64,000 nt of DNA from Bacteroidetes bacterium GWF2_38_335 (GCA_001769535.1 MEOH01000027.1:32553-96552), one strand, 5' to 3'. Counted from the stretch's first letter, positions 2,641-60,477 are shown. The notes: generated from the sequence alone by a model not told the origin. Program-made: numbers and translations.

Positions 2641-2653
2641 ATCGTTCCTGAAA

Positions 2654-3295: not shown

Positions 3296-3412
3296 AAATT
3301 ACAATTTCATTACAAAGGAAATAAAAACGGTAAACAATTCATATAGCTTGTTTGTTTAATAAATATAACAAAAAACAATACTAAACGTAAAAACCTTTTA
3401 TAAATGAAATAA

Positions 3413-6411: not shown

Positions 6412-6488
6412 AGTACTTACGAATGGTTTTCTCTATAAAAATACGCAAATCAATTAAAAATATTGTATTTTTATTGAAAATGTGGTTT

Positions 6489-7021: not shown

Positions 7022-7103
7022 TTTCAGTAAAACCAGAATAAAACTGTATATTGGGTTTTAATTTTTTGTCAATTGCTTTGAATGAAACACGAGAGAATCA
7101 AGG

Positions 7104-8324: not shown

Positions 8325-8555
8325 TTTTTTGCAAAGTTAATGGAGATGGTTCATTAAACTTTTTAAGTACTTAATCCATCGCGATCAAAAACAAAGATAA
8401 TGATTGTTTATATAAAAATTTATTTTCGAAATCAATAAAAAAAATTTATACTAATGTTGTTATTTTAAATAACTTAGGATAATAATATTAACAACAGTCT
8501 TTTATCAAAAAAGATTAGTACTTTTGAGGCATTGTTATGAGGCAGGAAATTAACG

Positions 8556-9821: not shown

Positions 9822-10420
9822 AATTTATTGACAGCAACAACAAACTAAACGATTTTTTAAATTCCGAAAAAAAAACAATCGAAATCGGATGTGGCAATAT
9901 CAGAGTTTTTGAAAACTCATTAACCCTTGATATCATTGAAGGAGAAAATGTTGATATTGTATGCGATATTGAAAACGGACTTCCTTTTATTCCCGATAAT
10001 TCAATTGACGTTGTTTACTCAAGCCATGTATTGGAGCACCTTACCAAGTTTGAATTTTGCATGGCCGAAATATCCAGGGTATTAAAAAAAGGAGGTATGC
10101 AAATTTGCAAAGTTCCTCATTTTACAAATCCATATTTTTATAGCGATTATACCCATAAAAGGACTTTTGGGATATATTCATTTTCATATTTTTCAAATAC
10201 GCCTTACTTTAAAAGGGGTGTGCCAAAATACAATTCAATCCATTTTAAAATAAAAAAAGTAAAAATTGTTTTTTATTCTCATTATTGGGTTTTGAATGTA
10301 TTCAATAAACTGTTTCAATTCTTGTTCAATTCTTGTCGTTTTACACAGGAATTTTATGAGGCCTATTTTTTTAAGTTTATTTCAGCCTATGAAATTCGTT
10401 TTGAATTAGAAAAAGAATAG
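9812..10420 (+). CDS. Class I SAM-dependent methyltransferase (Methyltransf_11-like)
   Basis: 202 aa. IEIGCGN (motif I) and DVVYSSHVLEHL...VLKKGG. Start overlaps the flippase stop (ATG 9812, TGA 9819-9821). Confidence 0.7.
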   Translation: MDLKFIDSNNKLNDFLNSEKKTIEIGCGNIRVFENSLTLDIIEGENVDIVCDIENGLPFIPDNSIDVVYSSHVLEHLTKFEFCMAEISRVLKKGGMQICKVPHFTNPYFYSDYTHKRTFGIYSFSYFSNTPYFKRGVPKYNSIHFKIKKVKIVFYSHYWVLNVFNKLFQFLFNSCRFTQEFYEAYFFKFISAYEIRFELEKE

Positions 10421-10422
10421 CT

Positions 10423-11241
10423 ATGGTAAGTTTGATCACGGTTAATTATAATTGCGAAGATGAAATAGATAAATTAATCTCAAGTACTATTTCTTATTTA
10501 AAAATACCCTACGAGCTGATTATTGTTGACAATAATTCTGAAAAAAACAAATACCATTCTTTCAAATCAAAATATAGTAATATTGAGAATATAAAATTTA
10601 TTGATTTAGATGCCAATTATGGTTTTGCCGAAGCAAATAATAGAGGAAGTGATGCAGCCAAATATAATATTTTGCATTTTATAAATCCCGACATCCTGTT
10701 TAATGAACAGGCAAATCAATTATATTATGAACTTGAAAAGTTTAGTTTGAATAATCAAATCTTTGTTAATCCTTTGATTGAAAACGACGGAAAATATATG
10801 TCTTTAGGCTTTGCAATACCAACCGTTAAAAATTATTTGAAAAAAATATTTAAAATTAAAGGCGTCAAAAAATGGTATATCGGCGCCAGCATTGTTCTTG
10901 ATAAAAGAACTTTCGGAAAAATAAATAAATGGTCAAACGATTATTTTATGTATTCCGAAGATCTTGATCTGTTTTACAAATCGCATTTAATGAAAATTGA
11001 AATTATTGAATTAAACACTCCCTTATTTCATATAGGCAAGGCAAGTAGTTCCAAAGTATGGACAAACTATCAAAGAGCCAAAATCATCGAAAATTCATTA
11101 AAGCTATTTTATAAAAAATACAATATTTCCTATCAATATTATTTAATCAGAATACCTCAATTAATATATTTACTTTTAACCGATTATAAGAATTTTAAGA
11201 TTTCATTTAATGCCGTTTTCAATTCATCACCCAAAAAGTAA
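10423..11241 (+). CDS. Glycosyltransferase family 2
   Basis: 272 aa. SLITVNYNCEDEI, IIVDNNS, GFAEANNRG and YSEDLDL (GT2 signature regions). Confidence 0.8.
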   Translation: MVSLITVNYNCEDEIDKLISSTISYLKIPYELIIVDNNSEKNKYHSFKSKYSNIENIKFIDLDANYGFAEANNRGSDAAKYNILHFINPDILFNEQANQLYYELEKFSLNNQIFVNPLIENDGKYMSLGFAIPTVKNYLKKIFKIKGVKKWYIGASIVLDKRTFGKINKWSNDYFMYSEDLDLFYKSHLMKIEIIELNTPLFHIGKASSSKVWTNYQRAKIIENSLKLFYKKYNISYQYYLIRIPQLIYLLLTDYKNFKISFNAVFNSSPKK

Positions 11242-11243
11242 AC

Positions 11244-12566
11244 ATGCTTAATCGCTTACTTAAATATAAAAGTCTTTTTCTTCTCCTTTTTATTGCATCA
11301 ATAATAATCGGAGTTGCAATAAGTTATAAGCAATTATATCTATTTCATGTAATTGCAATTGCTTCACTATTTTTTATTTTTTCAAAAAATGACCATTTAG
11401 AAAATATTAAAAATAAATATCTGATTATTTTCATTGTTACAGCTTTATGGTATCTCTTTTCAATTTTATGGGCACCAATTTTTTCTGAAGCAATAAAGCA
11501 CTCATTTTATATATTAACAGGTACTTATATAGTTTTTTATTTGACAGTAAGCATAAAAAAAGAACAGGAACTTACATCAATTTTTAAAGTAGCTTCATAT
11601 CTGGTATTAATTGAAATAGTTATTTGCTTAATTGAAATATTTACCCCGTTTCGGTTGCCGGTATCCCCTTTCTCAGAATATGCCGAATTATTTGGTAGAA
11701 GCTCAATAACAGGCACAACTGCATTCGAGCAACTTTCCCTGGAAACTTCTCCAACCGGATTTCATTGGAATCCCAATAATTTAGCACTGTTTATGCTGAT
11801 GGTCTTTCCCTTCTTTTTAATGATTGCAAAAAACACCTTTATTAAGTATTTTGGGATATTATCTATAATTCTTATAATATTTGCAACCAGTTCTAAAAGC
11901 GCTTTTATCGGCATCATTTTAATAATTACAGTATATGCCATAATTAAGCGAAAATGGTTAAGTTATCTTACATTACTGCTTATTTATTCATCCATTTTTA
12001 TAATAATTTTAAACAGATCAAAATTAACCGAACATCCCATTACAAGCAAATTAACAGAAACTACCGAGTATTTTACCATAGCGTATAAACCAATATTTAA
12101 TTTGTTGGATATTAAAATAGATGATGTCGAAATAACCGGGGAAAATTCTAATGGAATGAGATTGATTTTAATAAAAAACGGATTAAAACTTTTTTCTGAA
12201 ACTTATGGATTGGGTGCAGGCGCAGGTGGTTCTATTTATGCACAGCAAAGGGAAAATTACAAAACTGAAAGCCTTCATAATTTTTGGCTGGAAATTTTAA
12301 TTGATGGGGGCGTTTTGATATTTTCATTATTCATTTATATGTACATTAGTATATTCCTTTGTTTTTCCAAAATCTATAAATCAACAAATAAAACGAGTAT
12401 CATAAATTATCTGACAAAATCCTTTATTTTACTATTTATAGGGTTTCCTATTGGGGCGCTGGGTCCCAGTTCCTTAATATACTTCCTTCCAATGTATGCA
12501 ATGTTTGGAATAGCTGTTTCTATTATAAACATTCACAAATCAAACGAGAATGCCCTTATTGTTTGA
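11244..12566 (+). CDS. Second O-antigen ligase/polymerase-like (Wzy_C family) membrane protein
   Basis: 440 aa polytopic protein. Loop contains GMRLILIKNGLKLFSETYGLGAGAGGS...SLHNFWLEILIDGG, similar in logic to 7104..8324. Confidence 0.7.
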   Translation: MLNRLLKYKSLFLLLFIASIIIGVAISYKQLYLFHVIAIASLFFIFSKNDHLENIKNKYLIIFIVTALWYLFSILWAPIFSEAIKHSFYILTGTYIVFYLTVSIKKEQELTSIFKVASYLVLIEIVICLIEIFTPFRLPVSPFSEYAELFGRSSITGTTAFEQLSLETSPTGFHWNPNNLALFMLMVFPFFLMIAKNTFIKYFGILSIILIIFATSSKSAFIGIILIITVYAIIKRKWLSYLTLLLIYSSIFIIILNRSKLTEHPITSKLTETTEYFTIAYKPIFNLLDIKIDDVEITGENSNGMRLILIKNGLKLFSETYGLGAGAGGSIYAQQRENYKTESLHNFWLEILIDGGVLIFSLFIYMYISIFLCFSKIYKSTNKTSIINYLTKSFILLFIGFPIGALGPSSLIYFLPMYAMFGIAVSIINIHKSNENALIV

Positions 12567-12815
12567 GATAACGGGAAGTAAACTACCACCGTTGAAGTCG
12601 GTGACTTTAAAATAATATACAATTCTTTTAAAAAAAAAGGAACATTGAACAAGGAACATCGATATTCGATTCTAGAAGTTTTTAAGTTCCTAAATCTAAA
12701 ATCAGTATTCCCCTGATTAAAATTACAGGCAGGCTTTGTTCTTAAATCAAAATCATTTTATGGTTATGCGCTTATTACATAACCAACTTCTTAGAAGGTG
12801 GATTTTTGATTTTTA

Positions 12816-13211
12816 TTAAAACTTAATTTCCCCGATTTTTTTCAGTCTGCCAGTGTCGGTGAGATCCATGCCCGGAATGGATATTTCGTATGTGCAGCTG
12901 CTTTCTTTAAGTTTTGTAATTTTAAACTTGAAATTTTTTCCCAGCATCCATTCCTCATTTTTATTTGTGGTTCGGTATAACTGCAGCCGGCATTCGCAAC
13001 CGCTGATCCATTTTACCTTGTAATACGATACGGTTTTTTCGGCCTTATCCCATTCAATCTGAAAATGTTCTGAGCGAAGAATCAAAACATCTTTATCGTC
13101 TTCCACAATGAATTTTCCTGTGTGAAAATCCTTGCAAGTACTGGTTTTTTGAGAAAAACCAAGTGAAACTGAAAGGGTAAAAAGCGTAATTATTAATAAT
13201 TTTCCGGACAT
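12816..13211 (-). CDS. Small secreted hypothetical protein
   Basis: 131 aa with signal peptide MSGKLLIITLFTLSVSLGFSQ and 4 Cys. No family recognised. Confidence 0.55.
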   Translation of the reverse strand: MSGKLLIITLFTLSVSLGFSQKTSTCKDFHTGKFIVEDDKDVLILRSEHFQIEWDKAEKTVSYYKVKWISGCECRLQLYRTTNKNEEWMLGKNFKFKITKLKESSCTYEISIPGMDLTDTGRLKKIGEIKF

Positions 13212-13309
13212 TTTGGTTGCATAAAATTTGAATAAAGATATAAAATTACCTTAGAGTCAAAAAAAAAATCGAAAATAATGTAATTAAACGGGTTTATCTG
13301 ATATTAAAC

Positions 13310-16300
13310 TCAAATGCCGCCGGAAGGGGAAAACACAATAAGTTTCTGAATAGCTCCGGTAATATTTCTGGTGTCTTCGAAGATTATGGCCAGTTTATCT
13401 TTTTGTTCTTTCATCTGGCAATATCTCGGATGTGTCTGCAAATAGGATAGAATCCCGTTAAAAGTTTCGGATTTGTAAAAAGCTGCATTTTGGTCAGTAA
13501 TAAAATAGCAGACCATCTTATTGTTTTTCAGAATTATCTTTTCAATGCCCAGTGAAAGTGCAAGCCAACGGAATTCCACCACATTCATGAGTTCTCTTAC
13601 TGGAACCGGAGGCTCTCCGAAACGATCGGTAAGGTTTCTTTCAAATTCATCCAGTCCGGCCTTATCGGTAATTGTATCCAATTGCCTGTAAAGCTTGATC
13701 CTTTCGGAGATGCTTTCAATATAATATTCGGGCAGCAGTATCTCCAGATCGGTTTCCATCTGGCAATCCTGAGAGAATACTCTTGGCATGGCTTTGCCGA
13801 AGGTTTCGGTTTCTCTTTCTGCAAATATTTCTTTGAATTCATCTTCCCTCAGCTCCTGCACCGCTTCGTTGAGAATTTTCTGGTAAGTTTCAAAACCTAT
13901 GTCTGCAATGAACCCGCTTTGTTCCGCTCCCAGCAGGTTTCCTGCTCCGCGTATATCCAAATCCTGCAAAGCAATATTGAACCCGCTTCCAAGTTCTGAA
14001 AACTCTTCAATGGCTTTTAGGCGGCGGCGCGCTTCCGGAGTGAGGATTGTTGGCGGGGGAGCCAGCAGGTAACAGAATGCCTTTTTGTTCGACCGTCCAA
14101 CCCGGCCACGAAGCTGATGCAAATCGCTCAGCCCAAAATTATTTGCCATGTTGATGATGATGGTATTGGCATTGGGAATATCCAGACCGTTTTCAATGAT
14201 CGAAGTGGCAATGAGCACATCATAATCGCCCTGAATAAAATCAAGCATGATGTTTTCGAGCTTGTCGCCCTCCATCTGACCGTGTCCGACAATGGTTTTC
14301 ACTTTAGGGCACAGCCTGTTGATTAACGTTTCAATTTCAAAAATACTACTGATCCTGTTGTTGATAAAGAAAACCTGTCCGCCCCGGCTTACTTCATATT
14401 CAATAGCCTCCCGTATAATATCTTCATTAAATGTATGCAATTCGGTTACGATGGGATGTCTGTTTGGCGGCGGTGTAGTGATGATGGATAAATCCCTGGC
14501 TCCCATTAGGGAAAATTGCAGGGTACGCGGAATGGGCGTGGCGGTAAGGGTTAGGGTATCCACATTTACCTTTATCTGTTTAAGTTTTTCTTTTACACCC
14601 ACACCAAACTTTTGTTCCTCGTCGATGACCAGCAATCCAAGGTCTTTGAATTTTACCTCTTTGCCAACAATTTTGTGGGTACCGATCAATACATCCACTT
14701 TGCCTTCTTCGAGTTCCCTGAGCACTTCCCTGATTTTGGTCACTGACCTTAAACGGCTCACATATTCAACCTTGCAGGGGAAATTTTTAAAACGGTCTTT
14801 GAAAGTGTTGTAGTGCTGGAGGGCTAAAATGGTTGTTGGAACCAGCACTGCCACCTGTTTGCTGTCTGCTACAGCTTTGAAAGCCGCACGCATGGCTACT
14901 TCGGTTTTTCCGAATCCCACATCTCCGCATATCAGGCGGTCCATGGACAAATCCGACTCCATGTCCTGTTTGGTGGCAATGGTAGCTTTCAACTGATCGG
15001 GCGTGTCTTCGTACAAAAATGAAGCCTCAAGTTCTTTTTGGAGGTAGGTGTCCGGACTGAATTGAAACCCTTTGTTTTCCTTGCGTTTGGCGTACAACAG
15101 GATGAGGTCACGGGCAATATCCTTGACTTTTGATTTGGTACGTTCCTTGAGCTTTTGCCAGGCACCGGTTCCCAGTTTATACACTTTTGGCGGGTCGCCC
15201 TCCTTGCCTTTGTATTTTGAAATCCGGTGCAGCGAGTGGATGCTCACATAAAGAATGTCATTATCCTTGTAAACCAAGCGAATGGCTTCCTGTTTTTTTC
15301 CGTTGATATCAACTTTTTCCAGTCCGCCAAACCTTCCAATGCCATGGTCAACATGCACCACATAATCACCCGGGTGCAGGTTAGTTATTTCACTCAGGGT
15401 GATGCTGTCGCGGCGCGAGAAATTGTCTTTCAGTTTGTAGCGGTGGTAGCGGTCGAAAATCTGGTGATCGGTATAGCAGCAAATTTTAAGGTCATGATCA
15501 ATGAAGCCTTCGTGCAATACTTTTGGAACCGGAGTAAATGGCAGGTCATAGCCTTTGTCACTGAAAATATCCCTCAGGCGTTGAATTTGCTTTTCGCTTT
15601 CAGAAAGAATAAAAACCGCGTACCCCTGATCTTCGCGCACCAATAAATCATCGATTAGCAGATCAAAATTTTTGCTAAATACCGGCTGGTGTACGGTGTT
15701 GAAATAAAATATTTTGTCGGGTTCGAAAAAACTTTTGGTTCCCGATTCGATAACGCAGAAATTTTTTATTCCTGAAAGAAATTCTTTTTCATCAATCAAT
15801 AGTCCGGATGAATTCTCCTTTCCTCCGGCTGCCTCAAAAAGTTCACCGGTGCGCATAAGGCAAAATTCCATTTCGGGGCACCACACAATGGTTGAGGGAT
15901 TGAGAAAATCAAGAAAAGAGATTCTTGCTGTATTTGACTCCCGTTCCTGGATATTGGGTACAATAGAAATGGAATCATATTTACTTACCGAAAGTTGGGA
16001 ATCCACGTCGAATGAGCGAATGGACTCAACTTCGTCGCCGAAGAAATCGATCCGGTAAGGAAGTTCGTGTGAAAAGGAAAATATGTCAATGATGCCGCCT
16101 CGCACAGCATACTGTCCGGGCTGGTAAACAAAATCGGTACGTTCGAAGTCATATTCCATGAGCACTTCAGTGATAAACTCGATGGAAATGGCAATACCTG
16201 TTTGCAACTGCAGGGTATTCAGCTCAAGTTCTTTTCCGGTAATCACTTTTTCCATCAGTGCTTCGGGATAGGAAATGGTGATAAGGGATTTCCCCTTACC

Positions 16301-20434: not shown

Positions 20435-20926
20435 TTACTTGCTGCCGATTGCTTTATGTAATTTGTCCACTATCTCGGAAACGGCAGGACAAACAGGAAT
20501 ATTCTTTAATGTGATGTTCAGCAATTTGTGCATTTTTACCGAATCGGTGTGGGGATATTCGCGGCAGGCTTTGGGGCGGTTTTCATATACTGCGCAATAA
20601 TTGTCGGTGCCGAGGAACGGGCAAGGCATTGATTTGAATACAAAATCTCCGTCTTCATCTATTCTGAAGTATTGTTCTGTAATTTCTGAAGGTCTTTTTC
20701 TGAAATGTCCGGCAAGTTTTTCAATATCCTTGTTGGTGATTCTCGGGCCCAGTGACCGGCAACAGTTGGCACAATCGAGGCAATCGATGATTTCAAACAC
20801 TTCATCATGCAGTTTGTGGAAACTCTGGTCAAGGTCCTTTTTCTTTTTCAGCCGTTCGAACAAAGCTTTGTTTTTCTTTTGGTCGCGTATGGCTTTTTGT
20901 TTCAGTTGCTCAAAATCAAATGCCAT
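20435..20926 (-). CDS. YkgJ-family cysteine-cluster protein (UPF0153)
   Basis: ATG at 20926 (MAFDFEQLKQ). Motifs: CLDCANCCR and CPFLGTDNYCAVYENRPKACREYP. 11-nt overlap with the upstream EamA gene. Confidence 0.75.
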   Translation of the reverse strand: MAFDFEQLKQKAIRDQKKNKALFERLKKKKDLDQSFHKLHDEVFEIIDCLDCANCCRSLGPRITNKDIEKLAGHFRKRPSEITEQYFRIDEDGDFVFKSMPCPFLGTDNYCAVYENRPKACREYPHTDSVKMHKLLNITLKNIPVCPAVSEIVDKLHKAIGSK

Positions 20927-25696: not shown

Positions 25697-26734
25697 CTAA
25701 CTACCAAAATGATTCCATCCCTGAGCCACAAGAGGAACCAGCGTTCCGTCGCGCGCAACAAGCATGCAGCCGGTTTCTTTTGGGTTAATGTGTCCGATGA
25801 TGGAAATGCCGTCAATATCATTTATTTTATCGAAGTCTTTTTGCGGCAGGGTAAACAGCAGTTCATAATCTTCTCCGCCATTTAAAGCGCATGTTGTGGG
25901 GTCGAGGTTCATTTCTCTGGCCATGCGGGCAGTGACATCTGCTACAGGAATTTTTTCTTCATAAATGCTGCAACCCACGCCTGAATTTTTACAGATATGC
26001 AGGACCTCAGATGAAAGTCCGTCCGAAACATCAATCATTGATGTTGGCACAATGCCTGTCTGCGCAAAAAATTCAATCACATCTTTTCGTGCTTCAGGTT
26101 TCAGCTGTTTTTCGAGTAAATGATCAAGACCTGTAAAATCGGGTTGTGAATGGGGATTCACTTTAAATACTTCCTTTTCTCTTTCCAGCAACTGCAGTCC
26201 GATGTAAGCAGCACCCAAATCGCCCGAAACACAAATAAGGTCATTGTCCTTTGCCCCTGAGCGATAAACGGGCTGGTTTTTGCCGAGGTCACCAAGTACG
26301 GTCAGACTAAGCACCAAACCGCCCGGTGAGGTCGTGGTGTCACCGCCAACCAGATCAACGCCGTAGATTTTGCAGGCCAGAAGAATTCCTTCGTAAAGAT
26401 CTTCAAGGTCTTCAACACAATATTTGTTTGAAATGGCCATTGACACGGTAAGTTGCTCGGGCCGTGCATTCATGGCGTAGCAATCGGAAAAGTTCACCAC
26501 AGCCGACTTGTAACCCAGATGTTTCAGGGGCGTGTACATCAGATTAAAATGCACATTTTCAACGAGCATGTCGGTGGTGATAATGGTCTGCCCGCTGTGC
26601 TTAACCACAGCTGCATCGTCGCCAATACCCTTTATTGTTGACGGGTTTTTAAGTTTTATCTTTTTTGTGAGATGTTCAATCAGGCCAAATTCGCCCAATT
26701 CACTTATTTCCTTTGGTTTTTGTTTTTTTGGCAT
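25697..26734 (-). CDS. thiL: Thiamine-monophosphate kinase
   Basis: 345 aa with AIR-synthase-like fold motifs: GIGDDAAV, GGDTT, DVSDGL. Confidence 0.88.
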   Translation of the reverse strand: MPKKQKPKEISELGEFGLIEHLTKKIKLKNPSTIKGIGDDAAVVKHSGQTIITTDMLVENVHFNLMYTPLKHLGYKSAVVNFSDCYAMNARPEQLTVSMAISNKYCVEDLEDLYEGILLACKIYGVDLVGGDTTTSPGGLVLSLTVLGDLGKNQPVYRSGAKDNDLICVSGDLGAAYIGLQLLEREKEVFKVNPHSQPDFTGLDHLLEKQLKPEARKDVIEFFAQTGIVPTSMIDVSDGLSSEVLHICKNSGVGCSIYEEKIPVADVTARMAREMNLDPTTCALNGGEDYELLFTLPQKDFDKINDIDGISIIGHINPKETGCMLVARDGTLVPLVAQGWNHFGS

Positions 26735-43385: not shown

Positions 43386-43640
43386 GTGAACAAAACCGCC
43401 GGACGTGAAGTTCGCCTATATCCTAATCCAAATAAAGGAATGTTTAATCTATTTGTTTCCGGGGATGTATCATCCTTTGGAGAAATTGAAATATTTAACA
43501 TGCTCGGAAATGTCATTTTTCGAAAAAGAATAACTGGAAGTGAAACGGAGATTGATATTTCAGATAAACCAAATGGAGTTTATTATATTAAGGCAACAAT
43601 TAATAATTCGGTTTTTGTAGAAAGGGTTATTAAACAGTAA
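43386..43640 (+). pseudogene. Orphan T9SS type A C-terminal sorting domain (remnant of a secreted-protein gene)
   Basis: An 84-aa frame with only a GTG start, two TAA codons just upstream and no signal peptide. LYPNPNKGMFNLFV...NGVYYIKATINNSVFVERVIKQ is a complete Por_Secre_tail-type CTD with no cargo. Its N-terminal codons are repeat-module sequence. Confidence 0.6.
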
Positions 43641-51212: not shown

Positions 51213-51878
51213 ATGAAATATTCATTTTTAATTATCGCTTTGATATTCATATCGTTAAGTTCGTTTTCGCAACACAAAATAAAAGTTGAGGAAGATGATT
51301 ATTCCTTTTCCGTAGGACGCACCAACGCTCTTTCTGTTACCATTTACGAAAGCAATAAGGATGATGTCGAAAAAGAATGGAAAAAATTCATCAAAGACTA
51401 TAAAGCAAAGGTCAGCATTAAAAAGGAAATCTTTGCCGATGATGCTGAAATAAAAGATATCTCATCAAATGTAATTGATGTTTACGCGGTTGCAGAAGTT
51501 GATAAAGATGGCAATGTGATTCTATATGTTGGGTTTGATCTGGGCGGAGCTTTTCTTTCTTCCTCACAACACCCCGACAAGTTCAGATACGCCAAGGATA
51601 TGATGTACAAATTCGGAAAGGAAGCTACCCTTACTGCAATTGACGGCCATCTTGAAGCTGAAGGCAAGATTCTGAAAAAGAAGGAAAGCGAACAGGAAAA
51701 ACTGGTGAAAGAAAATGAACAGCTTCTGAAAAATATTGCCGATTGGGAAAAAAGTATCGAAAAGGCCAAAGCCGACATCGAAACAAATAAAAAAGACCAG
51801 GAACTAAAACTTGGTGAAATCGAAGCACAGAAAAAAGTTGTTGAAGAAATTACAGATAAAAAAAATAAAGTTGACTAA
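51213..51878 (+). CDS. Secreted hypothetical protein with C-terminal coiled coil
   Basis: 221 aa with a signal peptide and a K/E-rich heptad C-terminus. Confidence 0.55.
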   Translation: MKYSFLIIALIFISLSSFSQHKIKVEEDDYSFSVGRTNALSVTIYESNKDDVEKEWKKFIKDYKAKVSIKKEIFADDAEIKDISSNVIDVYAVAEVDKDGNVILYVGFDLGGAFLSSSQHPDKFRYAKDMMYKFGKEATLTAIDGHLEAEGKILKKKESEQEKLVKENEQLLKNIADWEKSIEKAKADIETNKKDQELKLGEIEAQKKVVEEITDKKNKVD

Positions 51879-51879
51879 C

Positions 51880-53022
51880 ATGAAATTATTAATTGCTCTT
51901 TTTGCACTCTGCTTAACTTTTGGATTAACTGCCCAGGAAAATCACAAAGACTATTCTTTTTCGAAAATTTATGATTTAAAAACAACTCCGGTAAAAAACC
52001 AGCAAAGCTCAGGCACCTGCTGGAGTTTTGCCACGGTTTCTTTTCTGGAGACCGAAATACTGCGCACCAAAAATATTGAAATAGATTTATCGGAAATGTT
52101 TTTTGTGAGAATGGCTTATTTTACTAAAGCCGAACTTTATATCCGTTTGCACGGAAACTCAAATTTTTCTGAAGGCGGACAGGCACATGATGTTTTTAAT
52201 GTGCTCAGAAAATATGGAATGGTTACCGAAGAAACTTACAAAGGGCTTTGCTATGGCGAAGAACAGCATGTCCATTCTGAACTCGTTGATGGTTTGAAAG
52301 GATATATTTCGGGAGTTAACAAAAAGAGCAACGGTAAACTTTCCACTGCATGGACTGCCGCTGTGAACGGAATTCTGGATGCCTATTTCTGCACAGTTCC
52401 CAAAAATTTTTCATACGAAGGAAAAACCTATAAACCCACCGAATTTGTTGGTTTTTCAGGCATCAACCCCGACGATTACATCGAAATTACCTCTTACTCC
52501 AACGAACCTTTTTATAAAAAGATTATTCTCAGGATTCCTGATAACTGGTCAGGCGACCAATACTACAACGTTCCCGCCGATGACATGATGAAAATAATCG
52601 AAAATGCCCTTAAGAACGGCTATAGTGTTTGCTGGGACGGTGATGTGAGCGAAAGAAGTTTTTGTTTTTCGGCAGGTATAGCCATTATTCCGGATGATGA
52701 CTGGAGCGATATTTCAAGAGCTGAAGCAGCCAAAAAATTCGAATCATACAATAAAGAAAAGGCTGTAACGCAGGAAATGCGACAGCTTACATTTGACAAT
52801 CTGACCACCACCGACGACCATCTGATGCACATTACCGGAATGTATAAAGACGCAAAAGGAGTTTTTTACTACAAAACCAAAAACTCCTGGAGCGCCGAAA
52901 GCAACAGCCAGGGCGGGTATCTTATGATGTCAGACTCCTATGTGCGCCTGAAAACAACCGCCATCCTTATCCATAAAAAGGCAGTCCCCGAGGAACTTGC
53001 TAAGAAGATAGGAGTAAATTAA
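51880..53022 (+). CDS. C1-family cysteine peptidase (aminopeptidase C / bleomycin hydrolase-like)
   Basis: ATG at 51880 (MKLLIALFALCL signal peptide). NQQSSGTCWSFA (catalytic Cys) and DHLMHITG (His). Confidence 0.85.
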   Translation: MKLLIALFALCLTFGLTAQENHKDYSFSKIYDLKTTPVKNQQSSGTCWSFATVSFLETEILRTKNIEIDLSEMFFVRMAYFTKAELYIRLHGNSNFSEGGQAHDVFNVLRKYGMVTEETYKGLCYGEEQHVHSELVDGLKGYISGVNKKSNGKLSTAWTAAVNGILDAYFCTVPKNFSYEGKTYKPTEFVGFSGINPDDYIEITSYSNEPFYKKIILRIPDNWSGDQYYNVPADDMMKIIENALKNGYSVCWDGDVSERSFCFSAGIAIIPDDDWSDISRAEAAKKFESYNKEKAVTQEMRQLTFDNLTTTDDHLMHITGMYKDAKGVFYYKTKNSWSAESNSQGGYLMMSDSYVRLKTTAILIHKKAVPEELAKKIGVN

Positions 53023-53107: not shown

Positions 53108-56100
53108 CTACCTCATCAAAGTAACCTTCCCGGCTACTTCATGCTTGTTCTCATCCTTGTCAAAATAAATAACCAGCCAGGTGTACACATCGGTGGGTGC
53201 TTTTTTATTGCCTTTTACCCTGCCGTCCCAGCCTGTTAACTGAGGTGCAAGGGGGTCATAGTCGGTGGTTTCGTAAATCAGCTCGCCCCAACGGTCGTAT
53301 ATTCCCATGAAAAATCCATCGGTAACCATTCCGGTGCCCACCACATAAAACAGTTCATTTATTCCGTCGTTATCCGGTGTAAACGCTGTTGGTGCCCAGA
53401 AAGTAAAATAGTCATTGATAATCACATAATCTGTGACTGTATCCCTGCATCCGAATTCAGTTACTGTAACCAGGGTTACTTCGTAAGTGCCCGGCTCAAA
53501 ATATTCATGCATGGGGTTTACCAGTTCCGAAGAATCATGATCACCAAAGAACCAATAATTATAATAATTGTAAACAGAGGTGTTTTGGAAATATATTTTT
53601 GGCTCCAGAATAGTAGTAACCCAAGGATCCGGAATAAAAGAAGCTTCGGGCTCAGGATATACGGTTATCATATCTTCATAGGTCATATCTGAACTACACC
53701 CAAACTCATTGGTAACAGTTAGGGTCACATCATACACCCCTGAATTCTGATATGTATGTTGCGGATTTGGCAATTCAGATGAATTATAACTGTCAGGATC
53801 ACCAAAATCCCAGTCGAACTGAATTCCAGGATCTGCCTCAGTTATTTCAGTGAAATGAACAATGAGTGGCGGACAACCATTGACAATATCTGATACAAAT
53901 CCTACCGGTGGAGCCGGAATAATTATAAAATTTGCTCCATCGAAAACCATGGGTGTATTACATCCATCTTCCATGGTAACGCTTATTTCAGCTGATTCCT
54001 CAGGGTAGTAACTATAAGGAAATGTTATGGCTGTTGTGCCATCGAAGATAAACTCATATGGTCCGCCATTTCCTCCTGAATAAACTGCGTTTACAGTAAG
54101 CATTTCGCCCCTGCAGATTGTATCATCAGCAAGAATAATTTCCAGATGCAGGGAGTCATGCAGATTAATATCCACGCTCTCGGGTGCAGCAGTGCAGCCA
54201 TTATTGTCGGTTACTGTTACGGTATAGGTTGCTGCTGCATCCGGACTAACTTCAATATATGCCGAGGTAGTGCCAATGTTCCACTGGTAAAAATAAGGAT
54301 AGGTTCCTCCTGTTGTTGCAGCATTGACAACAACGGTATCGTCAATGCAAATGGTTATTTCATCTGGCAGAACCACAATAAGCTGTCCGGGTTCATTTAG
54401 ATAAAAACTCTCTGATTGTACGCAATTATTATTATCCGTAACTGTCAGGGTGTACATTCCTGCAAGCAATCCGCCAATATCCTGATTTGTACTTCCATTT
54501 GACCAGTGGTAAGTGTAACCCGGTGTTCCTCCTGTTACCGACGCGTCAATAGCGCCTGTTCCAACTCCAAAGCAAACCAGATCGGTAATGGATGCGGTAA
54601 TAACAATTTGGGTTGTTAAATCAAAAATTTCAATGCTTCCAATAATATTACAGTCATTGGCATCTGATACAGTAACTGTATAAACACCCGAATGCAATCC
54701 GCTCAGATCAGATGTAGTCTGTCCCGTATTCCATAAATAAGAATAAGGCGGTGTTCCTCCGGATGTAAGCTGAAGGATACTTCCGTTGCTGTATCCAAAA
54801 CAAAGAATATCAGTCCCTGTGAGTGTTGTCACAAGTGCAGCGTCGGGTGCATTAATATTAACTGTTTCGTTGATAACACATGAATTATCGTCGGTTACTG
54901 TAACGGTAAAAGTTCCTGCTGATAATCCGGTGATATCTTCGGTTACAGCTCCGGTGCTCCAGTCATACGAATACGGAGTGGTTCCTCCCGAAACGGTAAG
55001 GTCAATATTTCCGTCGGTGCCGCCAAAACAGTTTACATCAGAATAATCAAAATCGAGATTCAGCGCGTTTGGTTCGTTTATATCAACTGTATATTCATCC
55101 TGGCATCCATCGCTTCCGGTTACGGTTACGGTATAAGTACCTGCCTCAATCCCTGAAATATCCTGCAAAACGCTACCATTACTCCATGCGTAGGTAAAAG
55201 GCGCGGCGCCACCGGTAACCGTCAGATCTATTGAACCAGTTGCAAAGCCATTGCATTCGGCATCAACACTGGTAGCAGACAAAGTAAATCCCGGAATATT
55301 ATCGACAGTTACAACCTGAGTTATTATGCAGCCATTCTGGTCGGTAACCTCAACAGTATAAGGGCCTTGACAAAGATTAACCGCAGTGGCAGTATTTTGA
55401 ACCGGAGAGGTGGTCCATTCGTAAGTGTAGCCCGGACTGCCGCCCGAAACGCTGATGGATGCTTCACCAATACACTGATCGCAGAAATCGTCTTCTGAAG
55501 ATGTTGTGAAAATAATCTCATCGGGAATATCAATGGTATAGGAACCGTTGGATGGTTCGCATGATTCCATTATTGTTTCAAGAGTGATGTTGTATGAAGA
55601 TCCCGGCGTCGGGAATGTAACCTGCATTGGTCCGGGCCCGGAAATATCACCGGCAATTACAGTGCCACCACCTAAATTCCAGTTATACACCACATCGCCG
55701 GCAGCAGTACCGGTATAGGTAATCAGTGCATAACCATCGGAGCATGCGGGCGGAACAATGTTAACTGTAACCGGAGGAGTTTCACAGTAGCAATCCATAT
55801 CAAAAGGAATTGACTGGGTTGCAGCAAGGTTTCCGCAATTGTCGGCAACCGATCCCGAAGCAGAGGCATTTAATGTAAGATTATAGGTTCCGCTGAAAGT
55901 AATGGCCGGACTAAATGTAACAGTAAAAGTATTGCCAAAATCAGCTCCGGCATCACATTCAGGCGAAGACATTCCGGTAATTGTAAATGGCCCGCCCGGA
56001 CCGGTAACCTGAAAATCAGCAATTTCGACCGTTTCACAAATAACGTATTCAGAAAAATTAATGGTAATCTGGTTGCCTTCACAATCAGGTGGGTCAATAT

Positions 56101-57094
56101 CTGTCATAAAAGGATTTACATCATCAAAAATAACTGCAGTAGAAGCCCCAAAGTTGATATCATAACCATAATTTGAACCAGACCAGTTTGAAACATACAG
56201 CACATAGGTATTACCAGCCGTGACCGGAATATCAGAGTTCCACTGATTCCAGGCTCCTGTTCCGGGCCCATTGCAATTACCCGATGACGCAGCGTTGGCT
56301 GAATTGGCACCGGTCGGACCTGCATTAACCGGAGGCAGACTGCCGTCGCCTCCAGCCGTACTGGCACTTACAAGATATGCCCAGGGATTAACAAGCAAGT
56401 CGGCACATGAACCTGTTGTCAGATTGAAAACCGCCCAATCGTAATCATCATCATCATTGTGGGGATCAAGAGTGAAACGGAAAACCCCATTGGTCTGGGC
56501 CGAAAAAATATACCATAAACCATTATTTTCCTGGGGAATACAGCTGGCTGCATCAACATTTATTTCATCAAGGAAATTCCCATCACCTGAATATGCATAG
56601 GGATCAGGCTCAACATAGGTGCTTTGGCAAATAGGAATTGCTCCCAAACAATCCTGAACTGTGGCAGCAGGAGGATCAATATCACAATCAACCGTGGCAG
56701 TCCAGCCGGCAGCGCCCACAGAGCCATCAGAAATAAACTGAATGGTTATGCATGAGGTGGTTGAAACTGCATTAAAACTTGAGGTTGTCCCGGTAAAAGG
56801 ACTACCTGCAACCTGCGGGGCAGATGTGTTTGTGCCTGAATAAATATACAAATAATCGAAATTTGTTTCAAGATCAAGCATTGAAAAAACCAGCCCTATA
56901 TTTTCGGAACTACCCGAACAAAAAGTTACTGTAAAAGTCTCGGAACTATTATAATCCCCTCCGCTCCCACCGCTGTCATAAAATGTTCCCGAGCAGGTGG
57001 TAACAGTCTGACCATTATAGGAATTAATCTGATACACCTGAGCAAAAGTGCCAAGTATAGAGAATAAAAAAGCTATGGTCAGAAACCGTTTCAT
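53108..57094 (-). CDS. Giant T9SS cargo adhesin-like protein: CUB-like N-domain, SprB-type repeats, PKD domains, type B (gliding-motility CHU_C) sorting domain
   Basis: 1328 aa with a signal peptide. About 6 units of C.G..(D/N)GSI.L.V.GG..PY.Y.WS.G....DI.GL.AG.Y.VTVTD.N.C. Two PKD-like domains (FDWDFGD..., WFFGDHD...). C-terminus FTPDNDGINE...GWDGR...YTWLV...AGKVTLMR. Confidence 0.9.
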   Translation of the reverse strand: MKRFLTIAFLFSILGTFAQVYQINSYNGQTVTTCSGTFYDSGGSGGDYNSSETFTVTFCSGSSENIGLVFSMLDLETNFDYLYIYSGTNTSAPQVAGSPFTGTTSSFNAVSTTSCITIQFISDGSVGAAGWTATVDCDIDPPAATVQDCLGAIPICQSTYVEPDPYAYSGDGNFLDEINVDAASCIPQENNGLWYIFSAQTNGVFRFTLDPHNDDDDYDWAVFNLTTGSCADLLVNPWAYLVSASTAGGDGSLPPVNAGPTGANSANAASSGNCNGPGTGAWNQWNSDIPVTAGNTYVLYVSNWSGSNYGYDINFGASTAVIFDDVNPFMTDIDPPDCEGNQITINFSEYVICETVEIADFQVTGPGGPFTITGMSSPECDAGADFGNTFTVTFSPAITFSGTYNLTLNASASGSVADNCGNLAATQSIPFDMDCYCETPPVTVNIVPPACSDGYALITYTGTAAGDVVYNWNLGGGTVIAGDISGPGPMQVTFPTPGSSYNITLETIMESCEPSNGSYTIDIPDEIIFTTSSEDDFCDQCIGEASISVSGGSPGYTYEWTTSPVQNTATAVNLCQGPYTVEVTDQNGCIITQVVTVDNIPGFTLSATSVDAECNGFATGSIDLTVTGGAAPFTYAWSNGSVLQDISGIEAGTYTVTVTGSDGCQDEYTVDINEPNALNLDFDYSDVNCFGGTDGNIDLTVSGGTTPYSYDWSTGAVTEDITGLSAGTFTVTVTDDNSCVINETVNINAPDAALVTTLTGTDILCFGYSNGSILQLTSGGTPPYSYLWNTGQTTSDLSGLHSGVYTVTVSDANDCNIIGSIEIFDLTTQIVITASITDLVCFGVGTGAIDASVTGGTPGYTYHWSNGSTNQDIGGLLAGMYTLTVTDNNNCVQSESFYLNEPGQLIVVLPDEITICIDDTVVVNAATTGGTYPYFYQWNIGTTSAYIEVSPDAAATYTVTVTDNNGCTAAPESVDINLHDSLHLEIILADDTICRGEMLTVNAVYSGGNGGPYEFIFDGTTAITFPYSYYPEESAEISVTMEDGCNTPMVFDGANFIIIPAPPVGFVSDIVNGCPPLIVHFTEITEADPGIQFDWDFGDPDSYNSSELPNPQHTYQNSGVYDVTLTVTNEFGCSSDMTYEDMITVYPEPEASFIPDPWVTTILEPKIYFQNTSVYNYYNYWFFGDHDSSELVNPMHEYFEPGTYEVTLVTVTEFGCRDTVTDYVIINDYFTFWAPTAFTPDNDGINELFYVVGTGMVTDGFFMGIYDRWGELIYETTDYDPLAPQLTGWDGRVKGNKKAPTDVYTWLVIYFDKDENKHEVAGKVTLMR

Positions 57095-57290: not shown

Positions 57291-57380
57291 ATTTCCCTTA
57301 TTAAAAAATCTGTTATTTCATCTATTTTTTTTAACCATTCATTATCGTATTTTTACATTAAATCAAAAAAATGTTTCTAT

Positions 57381-58862
57381 ATGAAAAAATTCCTACTAAT
57401 CCTTTTTGCTGCAAGCACATTTTCGTTTGCTGCAAATTCACAGGTTACCCTGACCACTGCGGCTGACTTTACAGCTACAGATGTTAATGGCAACACAGTG
57501 AATCTTTTTTCCCTGCTTGATGCGGGCAAACATGTAGTACTCGAGTTTTGGGCCACATGGTGAGGCACCTGTCCCGGTGTCGCAACGATCACCAACGAAG
57601 CTTATACCTATTTTGGATGCAACAATGGAGATGTTGTATTTATAGGTGTCAATGTTGAACCCTCAGACGACGATGCTGCATGCATTGCATGGGATGAGAC
57701 CAACGGAGTGGAATATATTACCATCAGCGGTGTTGCTGGCGGTGATGCAATCGGAACCACTTACGGTGTTTCAGCACTCCCGACTCTTTGTCTTATTAAG
57801 CCTGATCATTCAGTTGTTCTTCAGGACATCTGGCCAATCTCTGCTGTCAGTGACATTATTACTCCCCTCGAAGGCCAGGGCTTATCAGAAACTGCTTGTT
57901 CTTCAGTATTAACAGCAAACTTTTCAGCCACTCCCACTACAATCATGGTAGGCGGTTCTGTTAATTTCAACGACGGTTCTTCGGGCACTCCAACCTCATG
58001 GTCATGGACATTTCCCGGAGGAACTCCCGGTACCTCAACCGCAGAAAACCCCACCGGAATTGTATATAATACTGCTGGAACCTATGATGTAACTCTTGAA
58101 GTTTCTGACGGCACATCCACACATTCAACTACCAAAACTGCCTATATTTTTGTATCTGAAGATGCGGTTTATTGTGATGCAGGATCAACTGGAGTTTACG
58201 AATTTATTGATGCTGTTTCATTTGGAACCATTGTAAGCACAGCCACTGGAATTGGCGCAGGAGGTTATCAGGATCATACCGACATGACAACCAACATACT
58301 TCAGGGAAATACCTATCCTATTACAATTACACTAGGAAGCGGATATGCTTCGGATCAGGGAAGGGTATGGATTGACTGGAATCAGGATGGTGACCACCTG
58401 GATGCAGATGAAATGGTTTTTGAATCTACAGTTGGCGTCGGACCATATTCAGGAAATATTACTGTTCCTGCAACGGCTACCCTTGGCGAAACAGTTATGA
58501 GAATTAGGGTATGGGACACCAGCTCAGCCGGCGCAAATAATACTCCTTGCGGAGATGCAGACTGGGGCGAAGTTGAAGATTACAATGTTGTGGTTGAATC
58601 ATCAGGCGTTTCTGTTAATGAAATGAATAGTGTTTCTTATTTAATATATCCCAATCCTGCAGAAAACGAAGTTTTTGTTAATGTTGGCAACAGCAATGTT
58701 AATAAAATTGAATTGACCGATATTACAGGAAAAGTACTTATGGTTACCGAAAAAATCAATGACCTCAATAAATTTGATCTTTCGGGAAAAGTAGCAGGAA
58801 TGTACTTCTTCCGTATTTATACTGACAGTTCAGTTAAAACTCACAAAATCATAGTGAAATAA
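57381..58862 (+). CDS. T9SS-secreted thioredoxin-fold (TlpA/redoxin-like) protein with in-frame TGA at the CxxC position: candidate selenoprotein (UxxC), paralogue A
   Basis: ORFs 57381..57563 and 57708..58862 share a frame and are separated only by TGA 57561-57563. Read-through gives VVLEFWATW-U-GTCPG. Also has a signal peptide, a PKD domain (WSWTFPGGTPGTS...YDVTLEVSDG), a GEVED domain (ADWGEVEDY) and a type A CTD (YPNPAENEVFV...GMYFFRIY...HKIIVK). Confidence 0.8.
57576..57593 (+). promoter_or_regulatory. Candidate SECIS hairpin for paralogue A
   Basis: GGTG-TC-GCAAC-GA-T-CACC. The stem starts 12 nt after the TGA, has a bulged T, and the apical loop GCAAC starts 18 nt after the TGA. Confidence 0.6.
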
Positions 58863-58879
58863 TTTGTTTCAATTAATTT

Positions 58880-58911
58880 AAAAAATCCGGACTTGCTCCG
58901 GATTTTTTTTT
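58880..58911 (+). terminator. Intrinsic terminator after paralogue A
   Basis: AAAAAATCCGGA-CTTGC-TCCGGATTTTTTTTT. Confidence 0.8.
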
Positions 58912-58930
58912 GCCGCAATTTCATTTGAAA

Positions 58931-58938
58931 TAATTTTG
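58931..58938 (+). promoter_or_regulatory. Candidate -7 promoter box (TAnnTTTG) for paralogue B
   Basis: TAATTTTG 61 nt upstream of ATG 58999. Confidence 0.3.
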
Positions 58939-58998
58939 ATCAATGTTGATTTTCTTGAAAACGTATGCTACTTTTACACCAAAGTAATCGTTTACCAA

Positions 58999-60477
58999 AT
59001 GAAAAAAATCCTGTTTATTTTTTTTTCTTTATTAACCCTGTCCTTTTCAGTAAAATCGCAGGTCACACTCACCACTGCCGCTGATTTTAATGTCACTGAT
59101 ATCAATGGAAACCCTGTCCATCTTTTTGATTATTTGGATAATGGGAAATATGTAGTCCTTGATTTTTTCGGGACTTACTGAACCTCCTGTGCAGCCATTG
59201 CAACAATGGCAAATCAGGCATACCAGTATTTTGGTTGTAATTATCACGACGTCATTTTTATTGGTGTAAATCAGGATGCTGATGACGCTGCCTGCGAAGC
59301 CTGGGATATTGAAAACGGAGTTGAATATATTACCATCAGCGGAACATCAGGTGGTGCAGATATATTTGTTGACTATGGAATATCTGCTATTCCGACCATG
59401 TGCCTGATCGCGTCCGATCATACTGTTGTTATGCAAAACATCACGCCCATTGAATCTGTTTCGGATATCATTACACCACTTGAGGCGCAAGGCATTTCAG
59501 CAAACACCTGCGATATAATTTTAATTGCTGATTTTATTGCATCCGCCAACTTCATTATGCCCGGTGAAGCAATTGATTTTACTGATTTGTCACTGAACTC
59601 ACCATCCTCATGGTCATGGTCTTTCCCGGGTGGAACACCCGAAACATCATCTGAACAAAATCCCACCGGAATACTTTACAGTAACCCGGGAACCTTTGAT
59701 GTTACCCTTGAAGTTTCGGATGGCACAAACACAAATTCATTTACTAAATTCGGATACATAGTTGTTTCAGAAGTGCCTGTTTACTGTGATGCCGGAACTG
59801 TAAGCACAATTTATGAATACATTGATGCCGTTTCTTTTAACACCATCAATAATTCAGAAACCGGGAGCGGAACAGGAGGATATCAGGATTACACAACCAT
59901 TTCAACCACAATTAATCAGGGTCATTCATATCCAATAACCATTGGTCTTGGCAACGGATACTCACAGGATAAGGCTAAAGTGTGGATTGACTGGAATCAG
60001 GATGGAGATTTGCTCGACTCAGATGAAATGGTATTTGAGTCGGAAATTGGAGACGGACCATTTACCGGAGATGTTTTCGTCCCGGCAACTTCTGTTCCGG
60101 GCAACACCAGAATGAGAATAAGGATTTGGGATACTTCATCGCCCGAGGCAAATGATACGCCTTGCGGGGATTCTGACTGGGGCGAAGTTGAAGACTATAC
60201 GGTTATTATTGATTCAACCGGAGTTTCAGCAGATGAGTTAATTAATAACAATATTATCATTTTTCCCAACCCTGTGGAAAATAAAATATTTGTCAGTATT
60301 CAGGACCAGAAGATTTACAGAATTGAACTTACGGATCTGACAGGAAAAATAATTTTTCAATCAGAAATAATTGAAAACATGAATTGTTTTGACCTTTCAG
60401 AAAATAATTCGGGTATTTATTTTTTCCGTATTTATTCTGATTATGGAATCAGCACCCATAAAATAATTGTTAAGTAA
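58999..60477 (+). CDS. T9SS-secreted thioredoxin-fold protein with in-frame TGA at the CxxC position: candidate selenoprotein (UxxC), paralogue B
   Basis: ATG at 58999 (MKKILFIFFSLL). ORFs ..59181 and 59206..60477 share a frame and are separated only by TGA 59179-59181. Read-through gives VVLDFFGTY-U-TSCAA. Same PKD + GEVED (SDWGEVEDY) + type A CTD architecture as paralogue A. Confidence 0.8.
59194..59210 (+). promoter_or_regulatory. Candidate SECIS hairpin for paralogue B
   Basis: GCCATT-GCAAC-AATGGC, a 6-bp perfect stem starting 12 nt after the TGA, with apical loop GCAAC starting 18 nt after the TGA. Confidence 0.6.

Follow-up and report, generated by a model that had tools for sequence, protein, structure and literature searches.

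The closest described relatives of the proteins considered here are the thioredoxin-fold oxidoreductases ResA, TlpA and CcmG (DsbE), the TlpA-like group cd02966, which are exported from the cytoplasm and share a W-C-x-x-C motif at the N-terminus of helix 1 and a cis-Pro in 'LPT'. Oxidoreductases of the same fold also act outside the cytoplasmic membrane, as Etrx1/Etrx2 of S. pneumoniae, SdbA of S. gordonii and the secreted DsbE/DsbF of M. tuberculosis; these are Cys-based, are lipoproteins or secreted by the Sec translocon, and stand beside the membrane donor CcdA. Selenocysteine (Sec, U) has greater nucleophilicity than cysteine and resists irreversible over-oxidation, and to our knowledge the bacterial selenoproteins described so far are redox enzymes of the cytoplasm or periplasm. 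Thioredoxin-fold selenoproteins with a UxxC motif, TlpA-like ones included, have already been catalogued (PMC1794560, PMC2398784, PMC9312934, PMC13188914), and the UxxC TlpA- and peroxiredoxin-like families were described from Deltaproteobacteria, Clostridia and marine metagenomes (PMC1794560, PMC9312934, PMC13188914). Zhang et al. (2006) did not detect the Sec trait in Bacteroidetes (PMC1794560). In Table S2 of Peng et al. (2016) six Bacteroidetes appear among the Sec-utilising organisms, and for five of these (Cyclobacterium qasimii, three Dyadobacter species and Spirosoma linguale) the number of known selenoproteins is zero (PMC5029168). Here we analysed a tandem pair of genes in a 64,000-nucleotide stretch of DNA (the window) from Bacteroidetes bacterium GWF2_38_335, an uncultured groundwater Bacteroidota from the Rifle aquifer. 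An earlier note, made from the sequence alone, had proposed that the pair encodes secreted selenoproteins. Both genes carry an in-frame TGA at the first Cys of a thioredoxin-type CxxC motif and, judging from their sequence, most probably encode Sec-containing oxidoreductases that are cargo of the type IX secretion system (T9SS).

The locus combines traits of several of these systems. Like ResA, TlpA and CcmG the two proteins have the thioredoxin fold, the motif position and the cis-Pro, but the predicted nucleophile is Sec, the second x of the motif is never Pro in the Sec forms of the family, there is no membrane anchor or lipobox, and PKD, GEVED and T9SS sorting domains are fused to the redox domain. 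With the catalogued UxxC families they share Sec at the first Cys, Cys-containing homologues and a hairpin of the Sec insertion sequence (SECIS) type just after the UGA. The family model NF041054 ('ResA-like WAxxUGC motif-containing protein') has the ResA-like fold and W-A-x-x-U in common with them, gene 1 reading W-A-T-W-U; however, the window motif is UxxC and not UGC, and neither protein is a member (17.6 bits for gene 1 where 300 are required, no match for gene 2). T9SS type A cargo such as peptidases and adhesins shows a signal peptide followed by Gln, which the N-termini here resemble, and the same sequence of a catalytic domain, PKD/GEVED spacers, a C-terminal domain (CTD) of about 72 aa and clustering with other CTD genes, but here the catalytic module is a redox thioredoxin fold with selenocysteine rather than a hydrolase or adhesin. 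Unlike the CcdA-adjacent thioredoxins, the window proteins would be T9SS cargo beyond the outer membrane, with no obvious link to such a donor.

In every public source seen, genes of this family are either split into two open reading frames (ORFs) or mistranslated with Trp. When translated through, gene 1 (W1) and gene 2 (W2) each contain a single TGA and no other internal stop, as the earlier note had stated:

57381..58862, + strand: gene 1 read-through coding sequence, from ATG 57381 to TAA 58860-58862, 493 codons by translation
57561..57563, + strand: candidate Sec codon of gene 1, TGA, residue 61 (FWATW-U-GTC), the only in-frame stop inside the gene (VVLEFWATW-TGA-GTC)
58999..60477, + strand: gene 2 read-through coding sequence, from ATG 58999 (MKKILFIFF…) to a terminal TAA, 492 codons, repeating the architecture of gene 1
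59179..59181, + strand: candidate Sec codon of gene 2, TGA, residue 61 (FFGTY-U-TSC), the only in-frame stop inside the gene (VVLDFFGTY-TGA-TSC)

The start of gene 2 had been put at 58936, which is misplaced by 63 nt. Translation almost certainly begins at ATG 58999, because the MKK… start agrees with gene 1 and with every homologue, and TTG 58936 appears to be an artefact of the ORF track. The two products are 59% identical in amino acid sequence and have the same order of parts, namely a probable signal peptide, a ResA/TlpA-like thioredoxin domain with U61xxC64, a PKD domain, a GEVED domain and a T9SS type A CTD. The residues before U are V-L-E-F-W-A-T-W in gene 1 and V-L-D-F-F-G-T-Y in gene 2.

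To place the TGA codons in a family we collected about 90 related loci by DNA-level searches of metagenomes and genomes; protein searches gave two close relatives, P0001 and P0002. Family members are typically 255-270 aa long, some 400-800 aa, and consist of a signal peptide, the thioredoxin domain, sometimes spacers, and the CTD. Aligned with these homologues, the TGA column proved to be a clean Sec/Cys column, which bears out the suggestion that TGA had taken the place of the attacking first Cys. TGA stands exactly at the first Cys of CxxC in 20 loci and in both window genes, 22 TGA forms together, and the other 72 family loci have no TGA in the column, most of them carrying an intact CxxC encoded with TGC or TGT. 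The stretch from the TGA or Cys codon to the invariant FGCN motif is free of indels. With TGA recurring at this column in both paralogues and at 20 further loci, chance is ruled out as the cause. P0002, from a metagenome-assembled genome (MAG) of Marinilabiliales, has Cys at the site (FFYVT-C-PYC). P0001 (L001 187-966, and L002) is stored with Trp there, while its DNA has TGA (FWATW-TGA-STC). This Trp is an artefact of the gene caller (Logan), which presumably fell back on genetic code 4, and the case illustrates that selenoprotein genes can hide in protein databases as full-length entries with a spurious active-site W. In a neighbor-joining tree, which carries no support values, the TGA forms fell into four clades nested among Cys forms, and the window genes were sisters within a clade that also holds L001 and L009 (subgroup A). 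The sister placement indicates that the duplication followed the acquisition of Sec and that both copies kept Sec through a long divergence. The second x of the motif (the two x codons lie at 57564-57569 and 59182-59187 in the window; loci L009-L099 of the family alignment) was Pro in 0/21 Sec forms compared to 48/66 Cys forms (CxPC), a difference that might stem from redox tuning or from the demands of RNA structure close by. None of 69 generic TlpA-like matches from isolate genomes (Chitinophaga, Pedobacter, Mucilaginibacter and others) had an active-site TGA.

Split genes of this kind might be pseudogenes, or the TGAs might be assembly or sequencing errors, in which case only 60-aa peptides or nothing would be made. 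Gene callers do split both genes, and no Sec machinery was found in the window. However, six independent assemblies of GWF2_38_335 (NCBI GCA_001769705.1, one from ENA and four from JGI) agree on both TGAs, which excludes sequencing error, and the same codon is affected in both paralogues and in 20 further loci from four clades. About 430 codons 3' of each TGA run without another stop or frameshift. The earlier note had described the protein sequence after the TGA as conserved between the paralogues, and comparison of gene 1 with gene 2 gave a dN/dS of about 0.15 for this part (dN 0.31, dS about 2), the same as for the part upstream. The hairpin described below is conserved as well. The pseudogene or error explanation is effectively refuted, and we give it next to no weight. 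The alignment of the UGA with Cys together with purifying selection downstream strongly supports the selenocysteine reading of both genes, as judged from the sequence.

A reassigned genetic code, with TGA as a sense codon for Trp or Gly (tables 4 or 25), would also permit reading through, and P0001 was indeed stored with W at the TGA position by a public gene caller. But TGA is a normal stop in the window, as the earlier note had held: it ends 6/37 ORFs of at least 200 aa, well-supported genes included, among them those ending at 9819-9821 and at 20916-20918 on the minus strand. When the whole window was scanned for read-through, in-frame TGA with convincing coding flanks turned up only at the catalytic-Cys column, and the homologues have Cys at the site, not Trp or Gly. 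The probability that a reassigned code accounts for the two genes is practically nil.

Domain searches were run with U read as C and scored against the curated cut-offs of Pfam and NCBIfam. The domains named in the earlier note were recovered, the PKD, GEVED and sorting domains above their cut-offs and the signal peptide by inspection:

57381..57440, + strand: probable signal peptide of gene 1, MKKFLLILFAASTFSFAANS, with a conserved Gln behind it, by inspection
57456..57818, + strand: gene 1 thioredoxin-fold (ResA/TlpA-like) domain, residues 26-146 (Pfam AhpC-TSA, Redoxin and Thioredoxin; ResA alignment)
57915..58154, + strand: gene 1 PKD domain, residues 179-258 (PF00801 41.8 bits, cut-off 23.5; PF18911 36.5 bits)
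58362..58589, + strand: gene 1 GEVED domain, residues 328-403 (PF20009 74 bits, cut-off 24.4)
58644..58859, + strand: gene 1 T9SS type A sorting domain, residues 422-493 (PF18962 46.1 bits, cut-off 27; TIGR04183 56.8, cut-off 23)
59074..59430, + strand: gene 2 thioredoxin-fold domain, residues 26-144 (AhpC-TSA, Thioredoxin_8 at 29.0 bits, Thioredoxin, Redoxin)
59539..59748, + strand: gene 2 PKD domain, residues 181-250 (PF00801 33.1 bits, cut-off 23.5)
59974..60204, + strand: gene 2 GEVED domain, residues 326-402 (PF20009 72.9 bits, cut-off 24.4)
60259..60474, + strand: gene 2 T9SS type A sorting domain, residues 421-492 (PF18962 43.2 bits, cut-off 27; TIGR04183 47.6, cut-off 23)

The N-terminus of all family members, by inspection, resembles a signal peptide for the Sec translocon, with MKK, a hydrophobic stretch and (A/S)Q, and in both window products the sorting domain (Por_Secre_tail/TIGR04183) runs to the last residue. 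Thioredoxin-superfamily scores for gene 1 and gene 2 were 45.8 and 39.2 bits for AhpC-TSA (cut-off 26), 37.7 and 28.4 for Redoxin (cut-off 26.6) and 32.4 and 28.6 for Thioredoxin (cut-off 23.5). The closest sequence match of gene 1 in the PDB was ResA 4nmu (E=5e-10), and alignment to ResA 4nmu/2f9s put U on the first, solvent-exposed nucleophilic Cys of WCxxC with the cis-Pro 'LPT' conserved, in agreement with the family column. We tested the fold through the Cys homologue P0002, which is 49-51% identical to the window proteins. Its AF2 model had a pLDDT of 83-93 over the thioredoxin core and placed the active-site motif just before a helix at 62-78. A Foldseek search with this model returned ResA at the top (E=1.6e-10, target-normalised TM-scores 0.8-0.87) and also matched the surface thioredoxins Etrx1/2 and SdbA and the secreted DsbE/DsbF. 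Membership in ResA itself was not indicated, as genes 1 and 2 reached 50.0 and 45.8 bits on the ResA equivalog model NF002854 against a cut-off of 170. The domain has a ResA-like fold, yet is not ResA proper. We also considered a peroxiredoxin (AhpC/TSA proper) and rejected it: the peroxidatic PxxxTxx(C/U) motif is absent, with no Pro at -7 and no Thr at -3, and the AhpC-TSA match of both genes is one of shared fold.

In the family alignment gene 1 has four cysteines besides the active site, C80, C101, C137 and C173. The Cys of FGCN and the Cys closing the thioredoxin domain are conserved in nearly all family members, C101 occurs in most Sec forms and some Cys forms, and C137 (PTLCLI) was observed in the window genes alone. 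The conserved ones may form structural disulfides.

The RNA just downstream of each UGA was examined for a SECIS-like element, and a hairpin was found at similar distance in both genes:

57576..57593, + strand: gene 1 SECIS-like hairpin, GGUGUCG-CAA-CGAUCACC, with one bulged U and its loop 19 nt after the UGA; borderline
59186..59218, + strand: gene 2 SECIS-like element, lower stem CCUG/CAGG, upper stem GCCAUU(G)/(C)AAUGGC (59194-59210), apex G-CAA-C

In subgroup A the helix spans +16 to +22 and +26 to +32 around the G-CAA-C apex. It was 89% paired compared to 18-64% in slid controls, with compensatory changes at 4/7 pairs among its four sequences. The gene 2 hairpin had a minimum free energy (MFE) of -13.8 kcal/mol (z = -2.19), and 4/200 shuffles were equally good. 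The largest TGA clade, subgroup B (L011-L054, 11 sequences), has a hairpin that was 91% paired with 8 compensatory cells and was reached by 0/500 shuffles; there the amino acids shift in concert (Ala…Arg to Val…Asn) while the pairs are kept. The remaining two TGA clades are L065/L068/L084 and L039, and each of the four clades has a hairpin of its own, placed at much the same distance after the UGA. Over +10 to +51 the fold energy averaged -8.4 kcal/mol in 17 TGA forms versus -3.9 in 57 Cys forms (p = 3.5e-6, a value that ignores the kinship of the sequences). Published limits for bacterial SECIS (bSECIS) elements are a loop of 3-9 nt, a stem of 4-16 bp, a G in the first two loop positions, a spacing of 16-37 nt and an MFE of -7.5 kcal/mol or lower (PMC13188914). 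Gene 2 has a spacing of 18-19 nt and a stem of 6-7 bp, and has the G only if the loop is taken as GCAAC. On the SECIS check proposed in the earlier note, a covarying hairpin follows both TGAs; it is strong in gene 2 and borderline in gene 1.

Linkage of the TGA forms to the genes of Sec synthesis and decoding was evident in relatives. SelB and SelD are widespread in MAGs of Bacteroidales, Marinilabiliales and Lentimicrobiaceae. A selD gene directly adjoins TGA-form genes in L023, L036, L047/L048 and L050, and selB/yedF/selD flank the TGA forms in L023, L047/L048 and L050. A longer contig around L036 (L169, 64.5 kb, ENA ERZ27227323 k141_1617155; also L170) carries at 5890-13888 a compact Sec island made of tRNA-Sec (anticodon UCA), selA (525 bits, cut-off 268), selB (316, cut-off 242), yedF (186, cut-off 110) and selD (373, cut-off 125), followed by TGA family genes. 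These form a tandem pair of 416 and 414 aa, convergent to the sel genes, that mirrors the pair in the window. Adjacent sel genes were found at 5/20 TGA loci compared to 0/72 Cys loci (Fisher p = 3e-4), and at 4/14 compared to 0/52 after dereplication (p = 1.4e-3). When conserved neighbours were compared over 66 dereplicated loci, selD was the sole partner specific to TGA forms, and the Cys forms otherwise showed lineage-specific synteny only. For the window's own lineage the argument is indirect yet strong: both paralogues, at 59% identity, keep the TGA, the hairpin and 430 clean codons, which calls for long-term decoding of the UGA in this lineage.

Several observations weigh against reading the two genes as selenoprotein genes with an extracellular function. 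None of selA, selB, selC and selD was found in the 64-kb window or its flanks (Aragorn; tblastn with SelA, SelB and SelD), and searches for SelD and SelB homologues gave none labelled GWF2_38_335 among the best 120 SelD and the best 120 SelB matches, out of at least 6,700. In the window Aragorn detected no tRNA and Rfam no family that reached its gathering score, and look-ups of cluster names and contigs for GWF2_38_335 sel genes gave only the sel operons of other organisms. No Rfam SECIS family matched in the window or in a permissive scan of 57400-59400, which returned only weak matches on the terminator-like hairpin between the genes (see below). The gene 1 hairpin, at -6.9 to -7.5 kcal/mol, is weak and has no lower stem, and it competes with a more stable hairpin (-10.8 kcal/mol) that starts directly after the UGA. 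A G is present in the subgroup A triloop, CAA, only when its closing G-C pair is taken as part of the loop; the subgroup B loop of 9 nt (CCCUAUAUA-like) has no conserved G and departs from the published bSECIS model. An electron donor for a reductase outside the cell is not evident, and over the 66 dereplicated loci no functional partner besides selD is conserved nearby.

Three details belong beside these points. The competing hairpin of gene 1 lies at 57564-57581 (GGCACC-UGUCCC-GGUGUC) and overlaps the 5' arm of the SECIS-like hairpin, so that the two are mutually exclusive. Being atypical and without a conserved G in the loop, the subgroup B hairpins are likely to be missed by consensus-based predictors. 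A 345-aa AIRS-domain protein encoded at 25697-26734 on the minus strand was considered as SelD and is ThiL (TIGR01379 318.7 bits, cut-off 184; selD 52.7 against 125).

With no GWF2_38_335 sequence among the best SelD and SelB matches and the gene 1 SECIS weak, the UGA could instead be read through without Sec, by a near-cognate tRNA that inserts Cys or Trp or with Cys on tRNA-Sec at scarce selenium, giving mainly CxxC or WxxC protein and leaving the UGA as a throttle on translation. However, a covarying hairpin at SECIS distance would be useless for passive read-through, and the TGA forms are genetically linked to selC-selA-selB-yedF-selD. A throttle also leaves unexplained why the stop lies at the exact nucleophilic Cys in four clades. 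We consider read-through of this kind very improbable and favour decoding as Sec, in which the UGA at residue 61 would be read by SelB and Sec-tRNA(Sec) under the direction of the short hairpin whose apical loop lies about 19 nt after it.

The predicted destination of the two proteins rests on their domains. The CTD, the PKD/GEVED spacers and the flanking CTD-bearing genes identify them as likely T9SS cargo. All 15 of the 15 distinct complete TGA forms read through to a T9SS CTD, which was confirmed by both Pfam and NCBIfam in W1, W2, L001, L026 and L065, and most Cys forms keep it too. With its N-terminal signal peptide the product would cross the inner membrane by way of the Sec translocon, and in the periplasm it would fold into the ResA/TlpA-like thioredoxin domain with U-x-x-C, the PKD and GEVED spacers and the type A CTD. 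The T9SS would then recognise the CTD and move the protein across the outer membrane, for release or attachment to the cell surface. None of the T9SS machinery (porV, sprA, porU) was seen in the 64-kb window, where no search was aimed at it.

Alternatively, these could be true selenoproteins that act in the periplasm like ResA, TlpA and CcmG, for example in the maturation of cytochromes or copper centres, with the CTD as a non-functional or regulatory appendage. The closest structures are such periplasmic or extracytoplasmic reductases that depend on CcdA/DsbD, there is no known extracellular reductant, and T9SS cargo does pass through the periplasm. Against this, the CTD scores far over curated cut-offs and is kept throughout the complete TGA forms, the spacers and CTD-bearing neighbours are typical of T9SS cargo, and ccdA, dsbD and cytochrome-maturation genes were not conserved nearby in the 66 dereplicated loci. 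A purely periplasmic role seems unlikely to us, and the domains point rather to a surface-anchored or released extracellular oxidoreductase.

For such an exported protein an extracellular reductase mechanism is plausible. The U61 selenolate would attack disulfides or other oxidised sulfur outside the cell to form a selenenylsulfide, which C64 would resolve, and from this predicted U61/C64 chemistry the protein would be an extracellular or surface thiol-disulfide reductase or isomerase. Conjecturally, it might be re-reduced by environmental thiols or sulfide in the anoxic habitat, or be charged in the periplasm before export, and it might act on disulfide-rich protein substrates or secreted cysteine proteases.

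The tandem pair sits in a cluster of genes for secreted proteins. These neighbours, and signals around and between the two genes, were:

51811-53022, + strand: papain-family (C1) peptidase, on the 5' side of the pair
53108-57094, - strand: 1328-aa SprB-repeat/PKD/CHU_C protein, the 5' neighbour
57348..57355, + strand: possible Bacteroidetes-type -7 promoter box TATTTTTA, 26 nt 5' of the gene 1 ATG, read from the sequence
58880..58915, + strand: intrinsic-terminator-like hairpin with a T-run, AAAAAATCCGGA-CTTGC-TCCGGATTTTTTTTT, between the genes, fold -13.9 kcal/mol
58969..58976, + strand: possible -7 promoter box TACTTTTA, 23 nt 5' of the gene 2 ATG, read from the sequence
about 60719 to beyond 64000, + strand: 1547-aa Omp28/PKD/SprB/Por_Secre_tail protein, the 3' neighbour, which exceeds the window end
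43440-43640, + strand: orphan 66-aa ORF matching Por_Secre_tail (Pfam), just after the suf Fe-S cluster genes

The hairpin between the genes suggests that they are separate transcription units; it was not picked up by a terminator consensus scan. The Bacteroidetes -7 pattern TANNTTTR was not enriched in the window (151 matches compared to 150.7 expected), and a sigma-70 promoter scan of the window was uninformative. The orphan ORF at 43440-43640 may be the remnant of a T9SS cargo gene.

A second, unrelated candidate for a T9SS-sorted selenoprotein was observed on another contig, L176. At 2596-4389 on the plus strand a 597-aa ORF contains one in-frame TGA in …STMGCYCLG-U-GGTPPG…, with a signal peptide, a C-terminal Por_Secre_tail as its sole Pfam domain (37.4 bits) and a post-UGA fold of -15.7 kcal/mol. 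It lies directly 5' of tRNA-Sec (4473-4565) and selA-selB-yedF-selD (4596-9705), and the same arrangement occurs in L177 and L179 (GCA_964421215.1).

The earlier note knew of no description of this architecture and had stated as established that bacterial UxxC thioredoxin-like selenoproteins exist, and both statements agree with what we found. Apart from the sorting domain, these proteins are covered by no NCBIfam model, and no report of a selenoprotein linked to type IX secretion was found in the literature searched. The literature searched on the catalogued UxxC families mentions neither a T9SS sorting domain nor a PKD/GEVED fusion. The terms 'Bacteroid', T9SS and sorting domain are absent from the recent selenoprotein reviews and database papers searched and from Haft's 2022 preprint, and the signature motifs of the family are absent from the GOS selenoprotein sequence sets, taken from a file that may be incomplete. 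At the level of the domain the family may be identical with the catalogued 'thiol-disulfide isomerase-like' family (MAK15852.1, MGB1650493.1) or with BSepDB entries, from which it is set apart by descriptions only. The chemistry is thus already known, and what is apparently undescribed, relative to a nearest catalogued family compared by description only, is a widespread selenoprotein family, its destination and its phylum.

A T9SS-exported selenoenzyme would put selenocysteine chemistry at the surface or in the surroundings of polymer-degrading Bacteroidota, and it raises the biochemical question of what the substrate and the re-reductant of an extracellular selenolate reductase would be. As a tentative wider proposal, in which we have somewhat less than even confidence, T9SS-sorted selenoproteins could be a general unrecognised feature of anaerobic Bacteroidota, where Sec islands (tRNA-Sec-selA-selB-yedF-selD) travel with secreted selenoprotein genes of two cargo types (thioredoxin-like and CYCLG-U-GG) that would be the main reason for keeping the Sec trait. 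On this proposal they would be the first selenoproteins of bacteria to be exposed at, or shed from, the cell surface, and the Bacteroidetes reported to have Sec machinery and no known selenoprotein would be explained as well. That orphan-Sec puzzle becomes testable, as families like this one, with atypical SECIS hairpins that consensus-based predictors would overlook, are obvious candidates.

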